NCBI GenBank assembly: GCA_964600255.1
Contig: CAZRIX010000002.1
Coordinates: 34,067 to 98,066, forward strand
Direction: 5' to 3'
DNA length: 64,000 nt
Origin: an uncultured Candidatus Saccharibacteria bacterium
Lineage (GTDB): Bacteria > Patescibacteriota > Minisyncoccia > Phycocordibacterales > PALSA-1337
Position 1 is the first letter of the stretch. The number at the start of each line of letters is the position of its first letter. The position numbers and the translations under genes were made by a program. The notes beneath the pieces are model-generated. The model made no database searches. It was not told the DNA's origin and saw only the letters and a program-made list of their open reading frames with translations. Below, piece by piece: positions 1,585 to 44,585 of the stretch.

Positions 1585-3516
1585 TTAAGCCGGTACAAAA
1601 TCCAAAGTCTTTTTATCTAGATCTGCCGCCACTACTTTGAACTTGATAGGGTCCCCAAGAGTAAATCTCTTACCTGTCTTTTGTCCGATAATTGAATATG
1701 TTTTCTTGTCGAATTGATAGAAATCTGTACCAATGTTTCTGATATTTATCATTCCTTCTGACTTAGTTTCCTTTTCTTCTACATAGATTCCGTACTCTGT
1801 AACTCCGGAAATAGTGCCATCAAATACACTTCCAACTTTATCTGACATGTACTCGACTTGCTTTAGTTTCTTTGATTCTCGCTCTGCACTAGCAGCATCG
1901 ATCTCGCGAGCTGTAGATTTTTCGGCAATGTCTTGGAAGGCGATTATCTCTTTGTCACCAAATGTATCGTGCATCAAATGTCTCTGTAGAATTCTTTGGA
2001 TCAAAAGATCGGGGTAACGACGAATAGGTGAAGTGAAGTGAGTGTAGTACTCAAATGCTAGTCCGAAGTGGCCAATGTTCTTTGTTGAATACACAGCCTT
2101 TTGCATTGAACGAATCAAAGCTGTACTGATGAGTGCCTCATGCTGTGTGCCTTGTATTTGGTTCAATAGAGACTTTATGTCGCGTGCTGTGACTTTGCCA
2201 TCCTTAGTCTTTAGATCATAACCTAGAGCCTTTACAAATACTGCAAGGTCAGCCATACGTTCCTGGTCTGGTAGGTCGTGGATTCGGTAAAGTGAGCCTG
2301 TATCTCTTTTTCCTTTACTTTTAATTGCGTCAAAAATGAACCTAGCAACTTCACGGTTTGCCAATAGCATATATTCCTCAACTAGCTTGTGAGTATCAAG
2401 ACGTTCTTTCTTGTAAACTCCGATTGGCTTGCCATTTTCATCTAGCTTAAACTTTATTTCTTCCTGTTCGAACTCTATAGCGCCATTGTCATACTTTTGT
2501 TTCTGGAGTATTTTTGCAATCTCATTTAATTTATTTAATTCCTTAAAATACATTCCAGACTTTACATTCAAAACTTCCTGAGCATCTTCATATGTGAATC
2601 TGTGATCAGAGTTTATGATCGTTTTGCCAAAATGTCTTTCAAGTACGTCACCTTTTTCATTTAGAACAAACCATGCAGAGAAAGTAAGCTTGTCTTCATG
2701 TGGATTAAGACTACAAACGTCGTTTGATAGGACCTCAGGAAGCATTGGTATTGTACGATCTACTAGATATATGGAACAACCGCGCTTCAAAGCCTCTTTA
2801 TCAAGTTCTGAACCTACTGCTACATAATGAGATACGTCGGCAATGTGTACTCCGATTTCGTATTTGCCGTTACCGACTTCCTTGAATGAAATAGCGTCAT
2901 CGAAGTCTTTTGCATCAAATGGATCGATAGTAAAAGTAAGTGTCTTTCGGAAATCGACACGTTTTGGAATCTCATTTGCTATGTCGGTGTTTTTGTTCTT
3001 CTCGATTGTGTCAGCTTCGGCTTCGACTGCAGGAGGGAAGTTGATCTCGAATCCTTTCTCGAGAACAATAGATTCCATCTCTACATTGTTATTACCTTTG
3101 CGTCCAAGTATGCGGATGATGTCACCCTCAGGGTTTACCTTTGGATCTGTCCATTCACGCATTTTGACGTAAACTTTGTCACCTATAGATACCTTGGTCT
3201 GATCTTCTTTTGATAGGCGAATAGAAGCATAGGCCTTTTTATCATCAGGATATGCTGTTAGAACTCCTTCGCGAGAATCAACTATACAAACAAAAGAGTC
3301 ACGAGCTCGTTTTATAACCTTTGTTACTTCAGCTGTTTGCTGCTTGAATGAATTGGTCTTACCTAGCTTAACCTCTACAATATCTCCGTTTAGAGCTGTA
3401 TTTAGATTACCTATTTCAACTATTATATCTTTCTCTGCATCCTCTGGGTTTCTTATGTATCCGATTCCTTTACGAGTAGTGATTATTGTACCTTGCATTA
3501 TTACGTCTTTTTTCAT
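1585..3516 (-). CDS. rnr: RNase R / RNase II family 3'-5' exoribonuclease (RNB domain), short form
   Basis: RNB catalytic-domain motifs (HFGLAFEYYTHFTSPIRRYPDL), an N-terminal cold-shock-like region and a C-terminal S1-like region. At 643 aa it is shorter than a typical RNase R. Confidence 0.85.
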   Translation of the reverse strand: MKKDVIMQGTIITTRKGIGYIRNPEDAEKDIIVEIGNLNTALNGDIVEVKLGKTNSFKQQTAEVTKVIKRARDSFVCIVDSREGVLTAYPDDKKAYASIRLSKEDQTKVSIGDKVYVKMREWTDPKVNPEGDIIRILGRKGNNNVEMESIVLEKGFEINFPPAVEAEADTIEKNKNTDIANEIPKRVDFRKTLTFTIDPFDAKDFDDAISFKEVGNGKYEIGVHIADVSHYVAVGSELDKEALKRGCSIYLVDRTIPMLPEVLSNDVCSLNPHEDKLTFSAWFVLNEKGDVLERHFGKTIINSDHRFTYEDAQEVLNVKSGMYFKELNKLNEIAKILQKQKYDNGAIEFEQEEIKFKLDENGKPIGVYKKERLDTHKLVEEYMLLANREVARFIFDAIKSKGKRDTGSLYRIHDLPDQERMADLAVFVKALGYDLKTKDGKVTARDIKSLLNQIQGTQHEALISTALIRSMQKAVYSTKNIGHFGLAFEYYTHFTSPIRRYPDLLIQRILQRHLMHDTFGDKEIIAFQDIAEKSTAREIDAASAERESKKLKQVEYMSDKVGSVFDGTISGVTEYGIYVEEKETKSEGMINIRNIGTDFYQFDKKTYSIIGQKTGKRFTLGDPIKFKVVAADLDKKTLDFVPA

Positions 3517-31660: not shown

Positions 31661-32584
31661 ATGCACAGAATACGAGCAGGAATAATACGAGGTGGACCAA
31701 GTAGTGAGTATGACAACTCGCTTAAAACTGGTGCGAATATATTGAAGCACCTACCACCTGACAAATTCTCAGTTAGAGATATTTATATAGATAAGAATGG
31801 TGTATGGTACATGCATGGAATTCCGAGTACTCCACACGAGGTGCTCAACCATCTAGATGTGGTCATCAATGGTCTGCATGGACACTATGGTGAGGACGGC
31901 AAGATCCAGCAGATTTTTGAACAACATGGAATACCTTTTACAGGTTCTGACTCATTCGCATCAGCCATTGGCATGAACAAGAAGCTCGCAAAGGAAGTTT
32001 ATAAGAAAGAAGGTATAAAAACTCCAGAATCAAGACTTATAGAATCATTGGCTGAAGTGAGCAAGGAGGCCCACAAAATATTTAGGACATTCTCTCCACC
32101 CATGGTAGTTAAACCTAACCGTGGCGGTTCATCGCATGGAATAACCATTGCAAAGGATTTTACTGCTTTTGATGATGCTGTTCGTAAAGTATACGAGCAC
32201 AGTGGGTCTGTTCTTGTAGAAGAATTTATTAATGGAAAAGAAGCAAACTGTGTAGTTGTTGATGGATATAGAGGTCAGGATTTCTATACACCACCTCCAA
32301 TAGAAGTCCGAGGCAACGAACATTTCTCGCCTGGTTTATTCACTGACAAGGAGAAAGAAGAGATTTCAAGTATGGCAATTAAAGCTCACAAAGCTCTAGG
32401 ACTGAAGCACTACTCAAGTTCAGACTTCATCGTGCACCCCAAGAGAGGAGTGTTCATACTTGAGACTGACTCTCAACCAAGTTTGGCTGAAGAATCACTT
32501 TTCCCAAAAGCACTGAGATCTGTAGGGGCGTCACTTACACACTTTCTTGAGCACATAATCGACCTTGCATTAAATAAAAAATAA
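31661..32584 (+). CDS. ddl: D-alanine--D-alanine ligase
   Basis: MHRIRAGIIRGGPSSEYDNSL and the ATP-grasp fold. The ORF opens at 31616, but the Met at 31661 fits the Ddl N-terminus. Confidence 0.9.
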   Translation: MHRIRAGIIRGGPSSEYDNSLKTGANILKHLPPDKFSVRDIYIDKNGVWYMHGIPSTPHEVLNHLDVVINGLHGHYGEDGKIQQIFEQHGIPFTGSDSFASAIGMNKKLAKEVYKKEGIKTPESRLIESLAEVSKEAHKIFRTFSPPMVVKPNRGGSSHGITIAKDFTAFDDAVRKVYEHSGSVLVEEFINGKEANCVVVDGYRGQDFYTPPPIEVRGNEHFSPGLFTDKEKEEISSMAIKAHKALGLKHYSSSDFIVHPKRGVFILETDSQPSLAEESLFPKALRSVGASLTHFLEHIIDLALNKK

Positions 32585-32610
32585 TGTAAAATCATTAAAT
32601 CCCTCGTAAA

Positions 32611-32752
32611 GGGCTCGTAGCTGTCATGGTAGATATACAACGGATAGCTTCAAGCTAAGTAGGAAATCAAATAGTAAACAAGGGCTTGTGGCTGTTATGG
32701 TAGGTATACAACAGATAGCTACAATCAGTGATTAAGTTAGTATAAGTTACAA
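32611..32752 (+). repeat. Two tandem 71-nt degenerate copies of tRNA-Ala (pseudo-tRNA units)
   Basis: Each unit starts GGGCT(C/T)GT(A/G)GCTGT(C/T)ATGGTAG and matches the 5' half of the adjacent tRNA-Ala. Their 3' halves lack T-loop motifs. Confidence 0.6.
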
Positions 32753-32825
32753 GGGCTCGTAGCTCAGATGGTAGAGCAATCGCTTTGCAAGCGAAAGGTC
32801 AGGAGTTCGAATCTCCTCGAGTCCA
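32753..32825 (+). tRNA. tRNA-Ala (anticodon UGC)
   Basis: GGGCTCGTAGCTCAGATGGTAGAGC...CTTTGCAAG...GGAGTTCGAATCTCCTCGAGTCCA: a cloverleaf with a G3:U70 pair in the acceptor stem, anticodon TGC, and the GTTCGAATC T-loop. No encoded CCA. Confidence 0.9.
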
Positions 32826-32835
32826 CAACTAAAGA

Positions 32836-32866
32836 AAAGACTGGCGTTTGCTAGTCTTTTCTTTTG
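32836..32866 (+). terminator. Intrinsic terminator after the tRNA
   Basis: AAGACTGGCgtttGCTAGTCTT plus T-rich tail. Confidence 0.6.
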
Positions 32867-32977
32867 TCTGAAACTTGAAAGGAGATGAGAAAAGCGGAGC
32901 TATGTCGAGCCAGCAGGCGAGACTGCGAGCTGGGGTCGCGGAAAGTTCTGAACGTCGGTGAAGAACTTATCCGTGAC

Positions 32978-32997
32978 CGAATCTCCTCGAGTCCACA
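32978..32997 (+). repeat. 20-bp direct repeat of the tRNA-Ala 3' end (CGAATCTCCTCGAGTCCACA)
   Basis: Identical to 32808-32827 and lying 150 bp downstream. This is an att-site-like signature. Confidence 0.7.
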
Positions 32998-33030
32998 AAA
33001 ACAAACCCGCAGCCAACACTGCGGGTTTCG

Positions 33031-33486
33031 CTATTTGCTTTTCATACACTGTGCTAACACAGTAGTAATTGAACCGTCCTCCATTAAGACCAGATTTGTT
33101 GGATGGTCACGTGGATGACACCTACAGGACTCACCGAGAGAGGTCCGAATCTTCACTCGATTGCCCTTGTTCGTCTGGTGATAGTACCAGCGCACACCAA
33201 TCTCCATTGTAGGTACTGGAGAAAGCGGTGCTGGACGTTTCGCTACGTGTTGCCACCTTGTATACCGTACACCATTGTCATCGAGCGCTAAACTTTGTCG
33301 ACAAAGCCAAGTGAAACTTACCATCAGGATTGGTCTGCCGGACGTTTTTTTAATACTCCAATTGCAGACCTCACCTCGGTAAACACCGACCTCTACAGAC
33401 TCTAATTCTACTTGTCCACCATCTGACAGCCTGAGATCTTCCAGCCAACCCATAAGGCGATCTGGACACCTAAGATACAGATGCAT
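33031..33486 (-). CDS. Hypothetical protein; GC-rich islet adjacent to the tRNA
   Basis: A 151-aa ORF with elevated GC. It ends next to the hairpin CCCGCAGccaacaCTGCGGG (32997-33025), which is followed on the minus strand by a T-tract. Confidence 0.35.
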   Translation of the reverse strand: MHLYLRCPDRLMGWLEDLRLSDGGQVELESVEVGVYRGEVCNWSIKKTSGRPILMVSFTWLCRQSLALDDNGVRYTRWQHVAKRPAPLSPVPTMEIGVRWYYHQTNKGNRVKIRTSLGESCRCHPRDHPTNLVLMEDGSITTVLAQCMKSK

Positions 33487-33570: not shown

Positions 33571-34443
33571 CTAATCAGTCTTTGCCACCTGAACATTCTT
33601 GTATTCTGGTGCTTCGGCTAAATATCTAGCTTGGATTTCAGCAATTCCTAAGCCTCTCTTGTAAATACCGACTTTATCTAGAGTACCGACTGTTGAATAT
33701 GTTGATGTATTACCGGGGGCTCCGAAATAGAAATAATAATTGCTATTATCCCATAGAGTATATAGAGCAAACGAATTACTTCCAACTTCTTTCCCATCTA
33801 CATACAGTCTCGTGACTTTAGAAACTGCATCAACACTATAGGCTATAAAGTACCATTTACCAATTGTTAGAACAGGACCACTACTGATATTAACGGTTAA
33901 GCCTGCTCCTGGAACAATATATGTAAAAGCTCCAACTTTATTGCCTGTCATTGTAATCCCTGAATGATTACCTTCTCTACCCATAAGCATTCTGTTTACA
34001 CCTGGCTGAGCTTCTGTTGGTTTAAACCATAATGCATAAGTGAATGAAACATTAGCTGCATTAGTTGCCGATCTATCCTCACTATTACCTGGAATAAATC
34101 TAGCACCTGTATTAGTACCACTGCAATACAATCCTTTTCCACCCGTAGTCGGAGAGTCGTTGACGATACTACAACCACTTGGCATAGCGATTGAATATCC
34201 GTTACCTATACTATCTTTTATTACAGAGGTATCTGTATCTTCAAAATCAAAGTAAGCGATTGAGTCAGCTCCGTATCCTCTAAAAATAGATCCACTAGCC
34301 TGCTGCCCAGCAGCAATTCTAGCTTTTTCCCTTGAACTGCCGAGACTAGCAAGCACCACAGATGACAGGAGTCCTATTATTGATATCACTACGAGTAGCT
34401 CTATCAATGTAAAACCTTTCCCGTAAGTTACACTAATTTTCAT
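33571..34443 (-). CDS. Type IV pilin-like protein (prepilin N-terminal cleavage/methylation motif) with a beta-rich C-terminal domain
   Basis: KGFTLIELLVVISIIGLLSSVVLASL is a class III signal/prepilin motif. Confidence 0.7.
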   Translation of the reverse strand: MKISVTYGKGFTLIELLVVISIIGLLSSVVLASLGSSREKARIAAGQQASGSIFRGYGADSIAYFDFEDTDTSVIKDSIGNGYSIAMPSGCSIVNDSPTTGGKGLYCSGTNTGARFIPGNSEDRSATNAANVSFTYALWFKPTEAQPGVNRMLMGREGNHSGITMTGNKVGAFTYIVPGAGLTVNISSGPVLTIGKWYFIAYSVDAVSKVTRLYVDGKEVGSNSFALYTLWDNSNYYFYFGAPGNTSTYSTVGTLDKVGIYKRGLGIAEIQARYLAEAPEYKNVQVAKTD

Positions 34444-37020: not shown

Positions 37021-38406
37021 ATGTCGCCAACGATTTTTATTATTCTCGGTATTACTGGAGATCTAGCTGGCAGGAAACTACTTCCTGCGCTTCTTAGTCT
37101 GTATGTTAAAAAAGAGTTACCCAGCAAGTTTGCTATTGTTGGTTTTTCTAGACGTCCTTTGAACCGTGCAGAGTTCCGAGCCTTCATTAGAAGTCATATG
37201 CATATCAAGCCTGGTCAGTTCCACGAAGAGGATGTGAAGCACTTCATAGATCATATGTACTATGAGCAAGGTAATTTCGACACATCGGATTCGTACGCGC
37301 ACCTTTCTCAAAGATTAAAGAGTATTGATGATATTTTTGGTCAATGTTCTAACAAACTTTTCCACCTTTCAACACCACCGTCGCTATACGAATCAATTTT
37401 TACTCAGTTATACAACTCAGGACTAACAATCCCTTGTGGTGGAGATGAGGGTTGGACTAGAATATTGGTTGAGAAGCCTTTTGGGAATGATATTGAAACA
37501 GCAAAGAAGCTCGACAAAAAACTTGGTGGTCTCTTCAAGGAGGACCAGATTTTCCGTATAGATCACTACCTTGCAAAAGAAGCTTTGCAAAATATTCTCG
37601 CATTTCGTTTTGCCAATTCTCTTTTTGAATCACTATGGAACAGAAACCACATAGACAAGATTCATATCAAGCTAATGGAGAAAATAGGTGTAGGGACTCG
37701 AGGATCTTTTTATGACGCTATCGGAGCATTGAAGGATGTGGGACAAAACCACATACTCCAGATGCTAGCCTTGGTTGCTATGGAACCTCCAGCAAAGATG
37801 GATGCTCACTCTATTCGAGAAGAGAGGGCAAAGGTCCTATCTAAACTTCAGCTAGCAAATCCAAAAAATATCTCATCACGTGTTGTTAGAGGACAGTATG
37901 AAGGATATAGATATGAACCTGGAATAAAGGAGCATACACAGACCGAAACTTTTTTCCGTATAGAAGCCTTCATAGACAATCCTAGGTGGAAGAATGTGCC
38001 ATTCTATATCGAAAGTGGCAAAGAAATGTCAGAGCAGAAAACTGAGATCAATATTTATTTTAAGAATGATAAAGACGATAAGACATACGAGGACAGACAG
38101 AACGTACTAACATTCCGTATTCAGCCAGATGAGCTTATAAAAATTGGCTTCTGGGTAAAGACGCCAGGTTTTACAATGGATGTTGAACCAAAAGTTTTAA
38201 AATTCAAATACAGTGACCACCCTTCACACGCTATTCTGCCTGATGCATACGAGAGAGTGCTCTATGATTCAATAATAGGAGATCAGACACTGTTTACCAG
38301 TACGGATGAAGTGCTCCATGCTTGGAAATATATTACTTCTATTATAAACTCATGGAGTTCAGTGCCATTAACAATATACAAAAAAGGTTCACAGGAGGTG
38401 ATATAA
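37021..38406 (+). CDS. zwf: Glucose-6-phosphate 1-dehydrogenase
   Basis: GITGDLAGRKL NADP motif and the RIDHYLAKE active-site motif. Confidence 0.9.
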   Translation: MSPTIFIILGITGDLAGRKLLPALLSLYVKKELPSKFAIVGFSRRPLNRAEFRAFIRSHMHIKPGQFHEEDVKHFIDHMYYEQGNFDTSDSYAHLSQRLKSIDDIFGQCSNKLFHLSTPPSLYESIFTQLYNSGLTIPCGGDEGWTRILVEKPFGNDIETAKKLDKKLGGLFKEDQIFRIDHYLAKEALQNILAFRFANSLFESLWNRNHIDKIHIKLMEKIGVGTRGSFYDAIGALKDVGQNHILQMLALVAMEPPAKMDAHSIREERAKVLSKLQLANPKNISSRVVRGQYEGYRYEPGIKEHTQTETFFRIEAFIDNPRWKNVPFYIESGKEMSEQKTEINIYFKNDKDDKTYEDRQNVLTFRIQPDELIKIGFWVKTPGFTMDVEPKVLKFKYSDHPSHAILPDAYERVLYDSIIGDQTLFTSTDEVLHAWKYITSIINSWSSVPLTIYKKGSQEVI

Positions 38407-41738: not shown

Positions 41739-44585
41739 ATGATGTCTAATACTATGAATCCATATGATCATACAAAAGTTGAAAAGAAGTGGCAAAAAGT
41801 TTGGGAATCAAAGAAACCAAACAAGGTAAAAGAGGATCCGAAGAAACCCAAATTCTATGCACTCATAGAATTCCCATTTCCATCTGGTGCAGGACTTCAT
41901 GTAGGTCATATCAGAAGTAATACCGCTATGGATATAATTTCCCGTAAGCGAAGAATGGAAGGTTACAATGTTCTATATCCAATCGGTTGGGATGCATTTG
42001 GATTGCCAACAGAAAACTACGCCATCAAGACTGGTATCCAACCCGCAATAGTTACAAAGCAGAATACTGACAATTTCCGTAAGCAACTGAAAGCTCTAGG
42101 ATTTTCTTTTGACTGGTCACGAGAAATAGATACAACAGATCCAAAATACTACAAATGGACGCAGTGGATTTTCCTACAATTTTTGAAAAAAGGATTGGCA
42201 TACAAAAAGAAGATGATTATAAACTGGTGTCCAAAAGACCTTATCGGACTAGCAAACGAGGAGGTGGTCAACGGATGTTGCGATCGCTGTGGAACACAAG
42301 TTGAGAAAAAAGAAAAAGAGCAGTGGATGCTTGCCATTACCAAGTATGCTGACCGTTTGGACAAAGATCTAGATGAGACTGAATTCCTAGAGAAAATAAA
42401 GATCCAACAAAGAAATTGGATTGGAAAGAGTGAGGGTGCAGAGATTAATTTTCCAATAAAAGGTAGTAGTGACAAAATTAAGGTTTATACAACACGTCCA
42501 GATACATTGTTTGGTGTGACTTATGTTGTACTTGCGCCAGAACACCCCTTTGTCCAGGAATATTCAGGCAAAGCAGAGAATACAATAGAGATTGCAAAGT
42601 ATATTAAAGATGTAAAGAGTAAGACCGACATCGAGCGCACAGACACAAAGAAAGAAAAGACTGGGGTTGAATTAAAGGGAATTAAAGCAATTAACCCAAT
42701 TAATAATGAAGAAATACCTGTCTGGGTGGCAGATTATGTACTAGGTGACTACGGAACTGGGGCTGTTATGGCTGTACCTGCACATGACGAAAGGGATTTT
42801 GAATTTGCAAAAAAATATGGGTTGGGTATGAGACATGTTATTGCTCCAAGTCTAATTGATACAACAAACCCACCACAGCAAGGAAAGCAGGATACTTTTA
42901 GAGAAATAATTCTAGCTATAGTTTACGATCCGAGAAACAAGAAGTACTTAACGCTTAAATGGAAAAATCAGCCTTGGACAACTTTTGTGACCGGCGGAAT
43001 TGAAAAGAATGAGAGCGCATTAGAATCGGCAAAGAGAGAAATCCTGGAAGAAACAGGATATAAGAATATAAGACTTGTAAGAAGCCTTGGAATGTCTGAA
43101 TCCTTTTTCTACGCAGCTCACAAGGGAGTGAACAGAAGGGTTCATGTCGAGCACTTTTTATTTGAATTAGTAGACGATGCAAGAGTGGATTTAGGTGAAG
43201 TAGAAAAAGCTAATTATGATGTGCAGTGGCTATCCACTGAGGAAATTTCAAAAACAAAACTACAGCACGTAGAGTTTAATATGCTTTGGAAACGTATTCA
43301 GACAGGGAACGACACCTTTATTGATTCAGGAACTATTGTAAACTCAGGAGATTTTACAGGCAAGAATTCTGAAGAAGCTAAGAAGGCGATGACCCTAGTA
43401 GCCGGTGGCGAATGGGTTACAAAGTTCAAACTCCGCGATTGGGTTTTCTCTCGCCAGCGATATTGGGGTGAACCTATTCCTGTTGTTCACTGTGAAAAAT
43501 GTGGAATAGTTCCACTTCCAGACAAGGAACTTCCTTTGAAACTTCCTAAAGTTAAAAACTATGCACCTACTCAAAACGGTGAGTCTCCGCTTTCAGCTAT
43601 AGATAAGTGGGTAAATACAAAGTGTCCAAATTGTAAAGGTAAAGCAAAAAGAGAAACTGACACTATGCCAAACTGGGCAGGAAGTAGTTGGTACTATTTG
43701 AGATACACTGATGCAAAAAACAAAAAAGTTTTTGCTGATCCAAAGAACTTAAAATACTGGACTCCAGTAGACTGGTACAACGGTGGTATGGAGCATACAA
43801 CACTTCACTTACTGTATTCCCGATTCTGGCACAAATTCCTTTATGATCTTGGTCTAGTACCTACGAAGGAGCCTTACAAGAAGCGTACATCTCACGGTTT
43901 GATACTTGCTGAAGGAGGGGCAAAGATGTCTAAGTCAGTTGGTAATGTAATCAATCCAGATGATTTCGTAAAAACTGTCGGTGCTGACACGTTGAGAATA
44001 CATGAAATGTTTATGGGTCCATTTGATCAAGCTATTGCATGGGACACAAATAGTATTGCCGGCTCAAGAAGATTCATCGAGAGAGTTTGGAAACTTGTAG
44101 AAAAGATTGGTGAAAATAATATTGAAAAGATAGAGGTGGCAACACACAAAACAATAAAAAAAGTAGGTGAAGATATTGAGAAGATGGGATTCAATACTGC
44201 GATCAGTTCAATCATGATTTTATTGAATGATTTGGAGAAGGAAGACAAGATTCCAAAGGAAATTTATGAGACTTTACTCAAAATTTTGGCCCCCTTTGCA
44301 CCCCATGTTACCGAGGAATTATGGTCATTACTAAAGAACAAAGGTTCAGTTCACGCCAACTCATGGCCTCAGTATGATCCATCAAAACTTATAGAGAGTA
44401 CGGTAAGGATAATGATTCAAGTAAACGGGAAGGTTAGGGGGGAGATGAGTATACCAGCCGACACTGCAGATGCCGAGGTTGAGAAAATGGCTCTAAATAT
44501 GGATGAAATAAAAAAGTGGACATTTGACAAAGAAATTAAAAAGGTTATAGTTATTAAAAATAGGCTGGTGAATATCGTGTTTTAG
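41739..44585 (+). CDS. leuS: Leucyl-tRNA synthetase with an inserted NUDIX hydrolase domain
   Basis: Class I HIGH (PSGAGLHVGH) and KMSKS motifs, plus the editing-domain region (AVPAHDERDFEFAKKYGL). Inserted at about 42890-43330 is a domain carrying the NUDIX box GGIEKNESALESAKREILEETGY. Confidence 0.95.
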   Translation: MMSNTMNPYDHTKVEKKWQKVWESKKPNKVKEDPKKPKFYALIEFPFPSGAGLHVGHIRSNTAMDIISRKRRMEGYNVLYPIGWDAFGLPTENYAIKTGIQPAIVTKQNTDNFRKQLKALGFSFDWSREIDTTDPKYYKWTQWIFLQFLKKGLAYKKKMIINWCPKDLIGLANEEVVNGCCDRCGTQVEKKEKEQWMLAITKYADRLDKDLDETEFLEKIKIQQRNWIGKSEGAEINFPIKGSSDKIKVYTTRPDTLFGVTYVVLAPEHPFVQEYSGKAENTIEIAKYIKDVKSKTDIERTDTKKEKTGVELKGIKAINPINNEEIPVWVADYVLGDYGTGAVMAVPAHDERDFEFAKKYGLGMRHVIAPSLIDTTNPPQQGKQDTFREIILAIVYDPRNKKYLTLKWKNQPWTTFVTGGIEKNESALESAKREILEETGYKNIRLVRSLGMSESFFYAAHKGVNRRVHVEHFLFELVDDARVDLGEVEKANYDVQWLSTEEISKTKLQHVEFNMLWKRIQTGNDTFIDSGTIVNSGDFTGKNSEEAKKAMTLVAGGEWVTKFKLRDWVFSRQRYWGEPIPVVHCEKCGIVPLPDKELPLKLPKVKNYAPTQNGESPLSAIDKWVNTKCPNCKGKAKRETDTMPNWAGSSWYYLRYTDAKNKKVFADPKNLKYWTPVDWYNGGMEHTTLHLLYSRFWHKFLYDLGLVPTKEPYKKRTSHGLILAEGGAKMSKSVGNVINPDDFVKTVGADTLRIHEMFMGPFDQAIAWDTNSIAGSRRFIERVWKLVEKIGENNIEKIEVATHKTIKKVGEDIEKMGFNTAISSIMILLNDLEKEDKIPKEIYETLLKILAPFAPHVTEELWSLLKNKGSVHANSWPQYDPSKLIESTVRIMIQVNGKVRGEMSIPADTADAEVEKMALNMDEIKKWTFDKEIKKVIVIKNRLVNIVF

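Follow-up and report, generated by a model that had tools for sequence, protein, structure and literature searches.

A tRNA-Ala gene flanked by degenerate tRNA copies and a predicted structured RNA in an uncultured Saccharibacteria bacterium

Introduction

In Escherichia coli K-12 (NC_000913.3), three repeats of 178 nucleotides (nt) follow the tRNA-Tyr gene tyrV, each with the last ~19 nt of the tRNA; the closest of these repeats extends 19 nt into the 3′ end of tyrV, and the annotation places rttR here. Processing by tRNA-maturing enzymes has been proposed for RttR, the RNA found after tRNA-Tyr in E. coli. This tyrTV/RttR arrangement is the closest analogue of the locus described here, which would work alike without being a member of the same family: a tRNA-Ala(UGC) gene in a 64,000-nt stretch of DNA (hereafter the window; positions 34,067 to 98,066 of contig CAZRIX010000002.1, assembly GCA_964600255.1) from an uncultured Candidatus Saccharibacteria bacterium. 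Two degenerate 71-nt copies of the tRNA (hereafter units) precede the gene, and a repeat of the tRNA 3′ end that lies downstream forms one strand of the closing helix of a conserved, covarying three-way-junction RNA.

As in E. coli tyrT-tyrV, non-tRNA sequence on the same strand follows the tRNA and ends in a copy of its last ~19-21 nt; both loci also have a tandem duplication of the tRNA and a small RNA on the trailer (annotated there, predicted here). The differences are several. The RNA here has no sequence or Rfam relation to RttR (no match to rtT at E ≤ 10); it is present in single copy, as compared with three tandem copies in E. coli, and no tandem repeat was found; it is a covarying three-way junction, which in distant lineages also occurs without a tRNA-like end; and a terminator-like hairpin stands between it and the tRNA. 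Finally, the extra tRNA copies are 5′ relics here, where E. coli has a second intact gene.

A structured RNA downstream of tRNA-Ala

The features of the tRNA gene and its downstream flank are as follows.

32753..32826, + strand: intact tRNA-Ala(UGC), called by ARAGORN; Rfam score 69.4 bits over 32753-32825 (gathering score 29)
32808..32828, + strand: repeat copy 1, comprising T-loop CGAAU, T-stem 3′ strand and acceptor 3′ strand, then ACAA
32828..32867, + strand: terminator-like hairpin with U-run, directly 3′ of the tRNA (inverted repeat with 18-nt arms, 89% complementary)
32868..33002, + strand: conserved three-way-junction RNA (match to model R1), by fold, covariation and cmsearch (162.6 bits)
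32872-32886 with 32981-32993, + strand: closing helix of the RNA, 13 bp
32893-32931, + strand: arm A of the RNA
32934-32978, + strand: arm B of the RNA
32978..32998, + strand: repeat copy 2, the 3′ strand of the closing helix plus tail

Both ARAGORN and Rfam called the cloverleaf at 32753, which an earlier note, made from the sequence alone, had already taken for an intact tRNA-Ala(UGC). It was the sole RNA gene found by the two programs in the 64 kb, and Rfam at gathering score returned only tRNA across the whole window. Read from its sequence, the tRNA carries G3:U70 and does not encode CCA. The earlier note had further reported an exact downstream recurrence of the last 20 nt of the tRNA; this was borne out, with a length of 21 nt (CGAATCTCCTCGAGTCCACAA, at 32808-32828 and 32978-32998). 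No further copy of the 21-mer was found in the window at up to 3 mismatches (0 expected by chance). An independent Logan assembly (L070) was identical over 32798-33040; the repeat is thus not an artefact of assembly.

Downstream of the hairpin, positions 32868-32998 folded at −53.8 kcal/mol (z = −5.5 against shuffles) into an RNA of ~125 nt (32872-32993) with a single-stranded 3′ tail, UCCACAA. Relatives were fetched through homologues of Ddl, which is encoded just upstream of the tRNA, at graded distances; percentages below are Ddl identity to the window.

Window, 100%: two long units; full RNA
L071, 91%: one long unit; contig ends downstream
L072, 82%: no unit; contig ends downstream
L073, 80%: no unit; no downstream RNA
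L115, 66%: one long unit; no downstream RNA
L124, 64%: one long and one short (35 nt) unit; 5′ fragment of the RNA, 391-aa gene, full copy
L116, 63%: no unit; full RNA
L120, 63%: one short unit; stretch homologous to the L124 5′ fragment, after a 676-nt insertion
L123, 63%: no unit; no downstream RNA
L125, 61%: one decayed short (hybrid) unit; full RNA
L127, 60%: no unit; 5′ fragment of the RNA
L001, 55%: one long unit; 5′ fragment of the RNA

Based on these states, units and RNA are both old and patchy, and each is found without the other.

Alignment of the window with L116 and L125 (MAFFT and RNAalifold) gave a three-way junction with 42 pairs, of which 9 show compensatory double changes. 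With seven sequences, in an alignment fitted to the model's own structure, 93.8% of cells were paired and 26 of the 42 pairs showed double changes, a result reached by none of 500 shuffles; control structures with the partners slid by 1-3 columns had 32-47% of cells paired and 1-6 double-change pairs. Conserved G-U pairs identify the plus strand as the RNA strand. Model R1 found full copies after tRNA-Ala in L116 (156 bits), L125 (151 bits) and L124 (139 bits). The two arms alone were matched after tRNA-Ala(UGC) in L013 (42 bits, E = 1e-8) and after tRNA-Ala(CGC) in L008 (35 bits), lineages with only ~43% Ddl identity to the window. Judged from these matches, the predicted RNA is widespread after tRNA-Ala in Patescibacteria.

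The tRNA-like end is more restricted. The repeat is 23 nt long in L116, offset by 151 nt after the tRNA exactly as in the window. In L124 and L125 only the 15 helix-paired nt are still identical to the tRNA, and the last 6 nt have drifted. The L013 element shares at most 8 nt with its tRNA end (its own T-stem word being GTCCGCTC) and the L008 element 5 nt. Since the distant homologues have no comparable repeat, the RNA family is older than its tRNA-like end, which would so have been gained in the family of the window and kept where it pairs.

In three relatives a 5′ fragment of the RNA (25-60 nt) lies right after the tRNA hairpin (L124 1458-1484, L001 6446-6505, L127 11226-11250). In L124 the fragment is followed by a gene of 391 aa and then by the full RNA copy (2885-3018); the gene is AcrVA2-like in a precomputed record, which a Pfam scan did not confirm. 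Rearrangements at these loci seem repeatedly to break inside the RNA element.

Rfam 15 has no family for the downstream RNA; searches at E ≤ 10 with window positions 32500-33100, L013 and L008 gave chance-level matches only, and a literature search on structured RNAs of the candidate phyla radiation and on rtT found nothing relevant. The 5S, SRP, RNase P and hammerhead RNAs, and tmRNA, were each rejected by eye as its identity on junction layout and motifs. ARAGORN found no tmRNA, and Rfam tmRNA_permuted scored 12.1 bits against a gathering score of 47. Like the tRNA-like domain of tmRNA and the bacterial Y RNAs (YrlA), this is a non-tRNA RNA that borrows tRNA-Ala-like or tRNA-like helices, possibly read by tRNA-processing enzymes. 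Unlike tmRNA, it holds no copy of the GGGCTCG acceptor strand, and the partner of the acceptor-derived 3′ strand has another sequence, with A instead of G opposite position 70; the T loop is not intact, and no tag-like reading frame is apparent.

Downstream conservation might instead be coding, if the open reading frame (ORF) at 32885-33118, or its conserved part of 38 codons, were a small protein. An ATG at 32885 does follow a GGAG, and neither the window nor L116 has a stop within the 38 codons. However, the GGAG abuts the ATG with no spacer, six of the eight codons that differ between window and L116 are nonsynonymous, the frame stops after 5 codons in L001, and no homologue was found among 5.8 billion proteins; the changes are, moreover, pairwise compensatory in the RNA helices. 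We consider a protein here very improbable.

Possible integration at the tRNA 3′ end

A repeated tRNA 3′ end invites comparison with the att sites of tRNA-targeting integrative elements, among them integrase-less, cis-mobilisable ones. The likeness consists of a direct repeat from T-loop to 3′ end, a segment lacking in some relatives, and a variable flank. The earlier note had accordingly read the repeat as attL and attR. On this alternative, a tyrosine-recombinase element integrated in the T-loop-to-3′-end segment of tRNA-Ala and has since been deleted to ~150 bp, or a cis-mobilisable mini-element is present, and the conserved sequence represents att arms. Several observations agree with it. 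The repeat is exactly the tRNA segment that such integrases use; the repeat segment is patchy, being absent in L073, L115 and L123; and gene content downstream of the tRNA is variable, including the 391-aa gene between tRNA and element in L124. Comparison of L120 (1393-2086) with L124 (1410-1425) also revealed a 676-nt insertion exactly at the tRNA-Ala 3′ end, bounded by a 9-nt direct repeat (AGTCCACAA) and carrying an ORF of 193 aa with only a weak membrane-like Pfam match; in the sister L124 this site is empty. The end of the tRNA has thus genuinely served for insertion in this family.

The evidence from the repeat itself points elsewhere. The 150 nt between its copies consist of the terminator-like hairpin and the conserved structured RNA, and copy 2 is a strand of the closing helix of that RNA, whose interior shows RNA-type compensatory changes and strand-specific G-U pairs. 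No recombinase was found by Pfam within ~10 kb on either side of the tRNA (every ORF from 70 aa upwards with a gene call, 24.6-44.6 kb) or in the called genes of the relatives' flanks, and neither cargo between the repeats nor an attP in IMG/VR was found. The 20-mer had no match in IMG/VR (plasmid collections and metagenomes lay outside this attP search), where two patterns of the element core had 2 and 12 matches, none of them a match to the model and none with a tRNA. The segment is present, with equal length and offset, in L116 at 63% Ddl identity; an identical arrangement in relatives had been named beforehand as weakening the recombination reading. Both arms, finally, follow tRNA-Ala in the distant lineages that have no comparable repeat. 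We therefore do not retain the attL/attR interpretation, which we judge distinctly unlikely, and prefer to read copy 2 as a working strand of the RNA.

Pseudo-tRNA units upstream of tRNA-Ala

Upstream of the tRNA the features are the following.

32565..32592, + strand: putative sigma70-type promoter, TTGCAT-N16-TAAAAT, over the ddl stop codon (32582-32584) and upstream of the units
32611..32681, + strand: pseudo-tRNA unit 1, 71 nt, GGGCTCG TAGCTGTCATGGTAGATATACAAC plus a 40-nt tail; 14-bp hairpin, z = −2.9
32682..32752, + strand: pseudo-tRNA unit 2, 71 nt, GGGCTTG TGGCTGTTATGGTAGGTATACAAC plus tail; orthologue of the single L071 unit

A 25-nt word (AAGGGCTCGTAGCT...ATGGTAGA) occurs in three copies, at 32609, 32680 and 32751, with an exact spacing of 71 nt and 84-88% identity; the two units are 87% alike over 45 nt. 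ARAGORN called neither as a tRNA and Rfam found no tRNA in them even at E ≤ 10, so that scoring gave no sign of functional, distinct tRNAs; both fold as a simple hairpin. Tandem Repeats Finder scored no tandem array, the units being too diverged. The tail of unit 1 aligned to tRNA positions ~29-76 with a score of 20 against a shuffle mean of 6.1 (p = 0.0015), its homology spanning the anticodon arm, the T arm and AGTAAACAA opposite AGTCCACAA of the tRNA. Unit 2 gave no significant alignment of its own with the rest of the tRNA, but is a homologue of unit 1. Given the spacing and this tail homology, the description of two tandem pseudo-tRNAs in the earlier note holds. Its estimate that ~45 nt closely match the tRNA 5′ half was correct for the first ~25 nt; beyond these, only unit 1 keeps detectable homology. 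By sequence, the long units are decayed full-length copies of tRNA-Ala that arose by tandem duplication. In this they resemble tandem tRNA pseudogenes, as degenerate head-to-tail copies of the adjacent tRNA; unlike such pseudogenes, they have a deeply conserved derived core, which units before other tRNA species also have, and each carries the acceptor strand of its neighbour.

The units keep step with the gene. In L001, unit and tRNA alike have C at acceptor position 5 (both GGGCCCG); in the window and L071, units and tRNA alike have A at D-loop position 16, where T stands in all others. Because units co-vary in this way with their tRNA, the pattern points to gene conversion. Their number and form also vary: L124 has a long and a short unit, the hybrid unit of L125 starts as a long one and ends as a short one, and the short unit of L120 is preceded by a long-unit tail. 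Copy number and form (long, 71 nt; short, ~36 nt; hybrid) vary as unequal crossing-over predicts. Repeated recombination at the locus, which the earlier note had suggested, thus stands as regards variable units; recombination of the integrase type does not, as the units share their derived core with units before other tRNAs.

Leaders that lack units were also inspected. In L116 (3480-3510) and L123 (3480-3492) the sequences GGGTGGTGTGGTTTAAAT and GGGCGAAATAA resemble collapsed remnants of units, and units may have been lost there by internal deletion rather than being cleanly absent. L127 (10990-11100) has no pseudo-tRNA unit; instead a leader of ~140 nt with a long hairpin lies between promoter and tRNA-Ala, and its start (GGACTCGTCGACT) is faintly like the tRNA 5′ end. 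In the window, part of the unit 1 tail (32640-32651, ACGGATAGCTTC) is complementary at 10 of 12 positions to the 3′ side of arm B (32963-32974, GAACTTATCCGT); units and RNA rarely co-occur with both parts intact. Other identities for the units were tried and set aside. A small ORF inside them ((M)VGIQR...) has invariant third codon positions and no ribosome-binding site. Geometry or sequence, compared by eye, did not fit a transposon with target duplication, a CRISPR-like array, a type III antitoxin repeat, ops, a sigma54 site or a LexA box.

The putative promoter at the ddl end, TTGCA(A/T)-N16-TA(G/A)AAT, was kept in L001, L071-L073, L115, L116, L120, L123-L125 and L127. A simple promoter scan did not score 32565-32592 (8 of 12 matches, under the cutoff); we infer a promoter from the sequence and its retention. 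Since the units lie between this conserved promoter and the tRNA, they most likely form part of the 5′ leader of the tRNA transcript.

A derived core shared with other tRNA loci

The best-conserved part of the units has the form N7-TAGCTGTYWTGGTAGRTATACAAY, in which N7 copies the first 7 nt of the adjacent tRNA. Relative to the tRNA, C13-A14-G15 has become G-T-C/T and A23-G24 has become (G/A)TATA. Positions 13-31 were 91% identical among six long units, compared with 66% for the tails and a shuffle baseline of 52%. A metagenome scan with the core found it at three further loci: as two identical 79-nt units before tRNA-Thr(UGU) in L064; as two 36-40-nt units before tRNA-Val(UAC) in L065, where a neighbouring ABC transporter is labelled Taylorbacteria or Paceibacterota; and in L062, 3′ of tRNA-Cys and tRNA-Leu, as two 74-nt units where the contig ends. 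In all three, the seven bases 5′ of the core equal the acceptor strand of the adjacent tRNA or next unit. (The region downstream in L065 looked similar to arm B by eye and was rejected, as it gave no model match at E ≤ 10.) In IMG/VR the unit core TGGTAGGTATACAAC had 39 matches, all coding or chance and none in a tRNA-like context. A literature search found no description of the core motif or of tRNA promoters in Patescibacteria. The core also bears a split resemblance to boxA (CUGUyUUGG...ACAAC), which we simply note.

Four occurrences of identical derived bases cannot result from independent decay. The core is a functional site, or else the units belong to a dispersed family homogenised by conversion. 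The second option is part of a broader alternative, in which all tRNA-like parts are neutral debris of an old tandem tRNA-Ala array: the units would have no function, the shared core would have spread by ectopic gene conversion within a dispersed repeat family, and the RNA would merely be fused to a dead tRNA copy. The verified precedent of E. coli tyrTV favours such a history, as do the units that are decayed or gone in L125, L072, L073 and L123 and the hybrid and deleted forms that unequal crossing-over predicts. The 5′ strand of the closing helix (GAAAGG-AGAT) also resembles the variable-loop/T-stem stretch of the tRNA, GAAAGGTCAGGAGTT, pointing to a dead tRNA copy whose T loop contains an insertion. 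Neutral intergenic DNA, however, is expected to be unalignable at 55-66% Ddl identity, yet the derived core remains at 91% against 66% for the tails. The same derived bases before Ala, Thr, Val and a fourth tRNA cannot have arisen independently, and ectopic conversion would have to work with homology tracts of 5-7 nt, which is short. We regard the debris account as unlikely and favour a constrained core.

Another alternative is that the units act as additional promoters for the tRNA. The TATACA (or TACAAT) of the core would be a −10 element, the units would be tandem promoters, and the short form would start transcription at or near tRNA position 1. The spacing is suggestive: the core of short units ends 4-9 nt before the first base of the next unit or tRNA, with TATACA at a distance of 6 nt (short unit of L124) or 7 nt (unit B of L065) and TACAAT at 8 nt (L120); long units have −10-like hexamers (TATAAG, TATAAT, TATAAA) 6-9 nt before the next G1. 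Such hexamers are common in AT-rich spacers, however. Inspection by eye places the variable acceptor copy where a −35 element should be, without a TGn extension; no plus-strand site came out of the promoter scan, nor has the core the canonical geometry of a sigma70 promoter; and a well-conserved canonical promoter already lies upstream. This explanation is highly unlikely in our estimation, and a cis element of the pre-tRNA leader remains the reading that we prefer.

Proposed explanation

Our explanation, to which we assign a probability slightly above one half (about 0.55), is that the locus is a tRNA-Ala expression unit whose flanks consist partly of tRNA copies: a leader of relics with a constrained cis element, and a trailer RNA that borrows a tRNA helix and would so be a substrate of end-processing enzymes. 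We infer co-transcription, processing and unit function from the sequences, their conservation and covariation, the variation in copy number and the co-variation of units with their tRNA. The proposed course of events is as follows: tandem duplication of tRNA-Ala would have left two relics between the promoter at the ddl end and the tRNA. Unequal crossing-over would then have changed the number of units, and gene conversion would have kept their first ~12-22 nt in step with the tRNA. The derived 'pseudo-D-arm' core (GCTGTY.TGGTAGRTATACAAY) would have been held constant, most likely as a cis element of the pre-tRNA leader. Downstream, in the family of the window, the closing helix of the RNA would have been rebuilt from a copy of the tRNA from T-loop to 3′ end, so that the RNA presents a helix of 13 bp, near the 12 bp of an acceptor/T stack, and a tRNA-like 3′ tail. 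Release and trimming of the RNA may be the work of RNase P, 3′ trimming enzymes and the CCA-adding enzyme, by analogy with the proposal for RttR.

Several points weigh against this explanation. The main objection is the terminator-like hairpin at 32828-32867 between tRNA and RNA. A hairpin with T-run stands at the same place after the tRNA in all relatives, though the sequences differ. Since this strong hairpin with its U-run intervenes in every lineage and no convincing promoter was found for the three-way-junction RNA, co-transcription needs read-through. In L124 and L125 two mismatched pairs partly disrupt the closing helix, and because no more than 8 nt (L013) and 5 nt (L008) agree with the local tRNA end, the tRNA-like end is not essential to the RNA family. 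The seven-sequence covariation alignment was, as stated, fitted to the structure that it supports. As regards the leader, the core is known at only four independent tRNA loci, three of which were found by searching for the core itself. In L125 it has 6 mismatches in 24 positions, and L072, L073 and L123 have no units; any function of the units must be dispensable, because they decay or are lost in some lineages. No RNA structure is common to all unit families, the short units of L065 being unstructured.

A more far-reaching version, which we offer tentatively and think more doubtful than probable, is that Paceibacteria have two undescribed RNA elements linked to tRNAs. The first would be a leader module that imitates, in each place, the 5′ quarter of the following tRNA and has a fixed 'pseudo-D-arm' (GCUGUY.UGGUAGRUAUACAAY), read by a dedicated factor and controlling pre-tRNA maturation or the transcription of many tRNA genes. 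The second would be a three-way-junction RNA that travels with tRNA-Ala, in one family has acquired the T-stem and acceptor 3′ strand of the tRNA, and is processed, perhaps CCA-tailed, like a tRNA.

Genomic context

The genes that flank the locus are housekeeping genes: UvrB, a response regulator, UvrA, UvrC and Ddl, followed by tRNA-Ala. On the 3′ side of the tRNA are an ORF of 151 aa and a pilin-like gene (both on the minus strand), then bPH and a LexA-like protein and, further downstream, a pyrophosphatase (PPase), G6PD, YchF, EamA and LeuRS. Adjacency of ddl and tRNA-Ala is conserved in Patescibacteria, over Ddl identities of ~41-91%; the linkage of an alanine tRNA with the gene for D-Ala-D-Ala ligase is a curious pairing. 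Two neighbouring features lie just beyond the RNA.

33003..33028, no strand assigned: GC-rich hairpin between the three-way-junction RNA and the convergent 151-aa gene, scored as a minus-strand terminator
33031..33486, − strand: 151-aa ORF, 47% GC as compared with 40% for the window; a neighbour, outside the feature

The earlier note had counted the latter, as a GC-rich islet, with the putative element. It lies outside the repeats and has no Pfam domain, and weak homologues occupy the same position in L120 (171 aa, E = 6e-13) and L123 (159 aa). For this last reason it is a syntenic gene rather than island cargo; from sequence comparison it is a fast-evolving one with no assigned function.

Two further observations concern the downstream genes. 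An 11-mer of the tRNA 3′ end (TCCTCGAGTCC) occurs inverted, on the minus strand, at 37694-37704 inside the G6PD gene, 5 kb downstream (0.03 expected), and is probably there by chance. In LeuRS (41739-44585), a NUDIX hydrolase domain (aa 390-510) is inserted directly after the editing domain.

Significance

A repeated tRNA 3′ end is routinely taken as the mark of an integrated island; in this case it reads as a working part of an adjoining RNA gene. Because such a repeat can belong to a neighbouring RNA gene, island callers would mis-annotate a locus of this kind. Neither flanking element was found described, in the literature or in Rfam 15, and the main interest lies in the leader core and the RNA family, which were not found catalogued. 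They add two candidate RNA elements, a covarying RNA of ~125 nt and a leader motif that copies the acceptor strand, to the Patescibacteria, in which non-coding RNAs have hardly been charted. Should the leader motif prove functional, it would indicate that pre-tRNAs are handled in a particular way throughout this lineage of organisms with minimal genomes.

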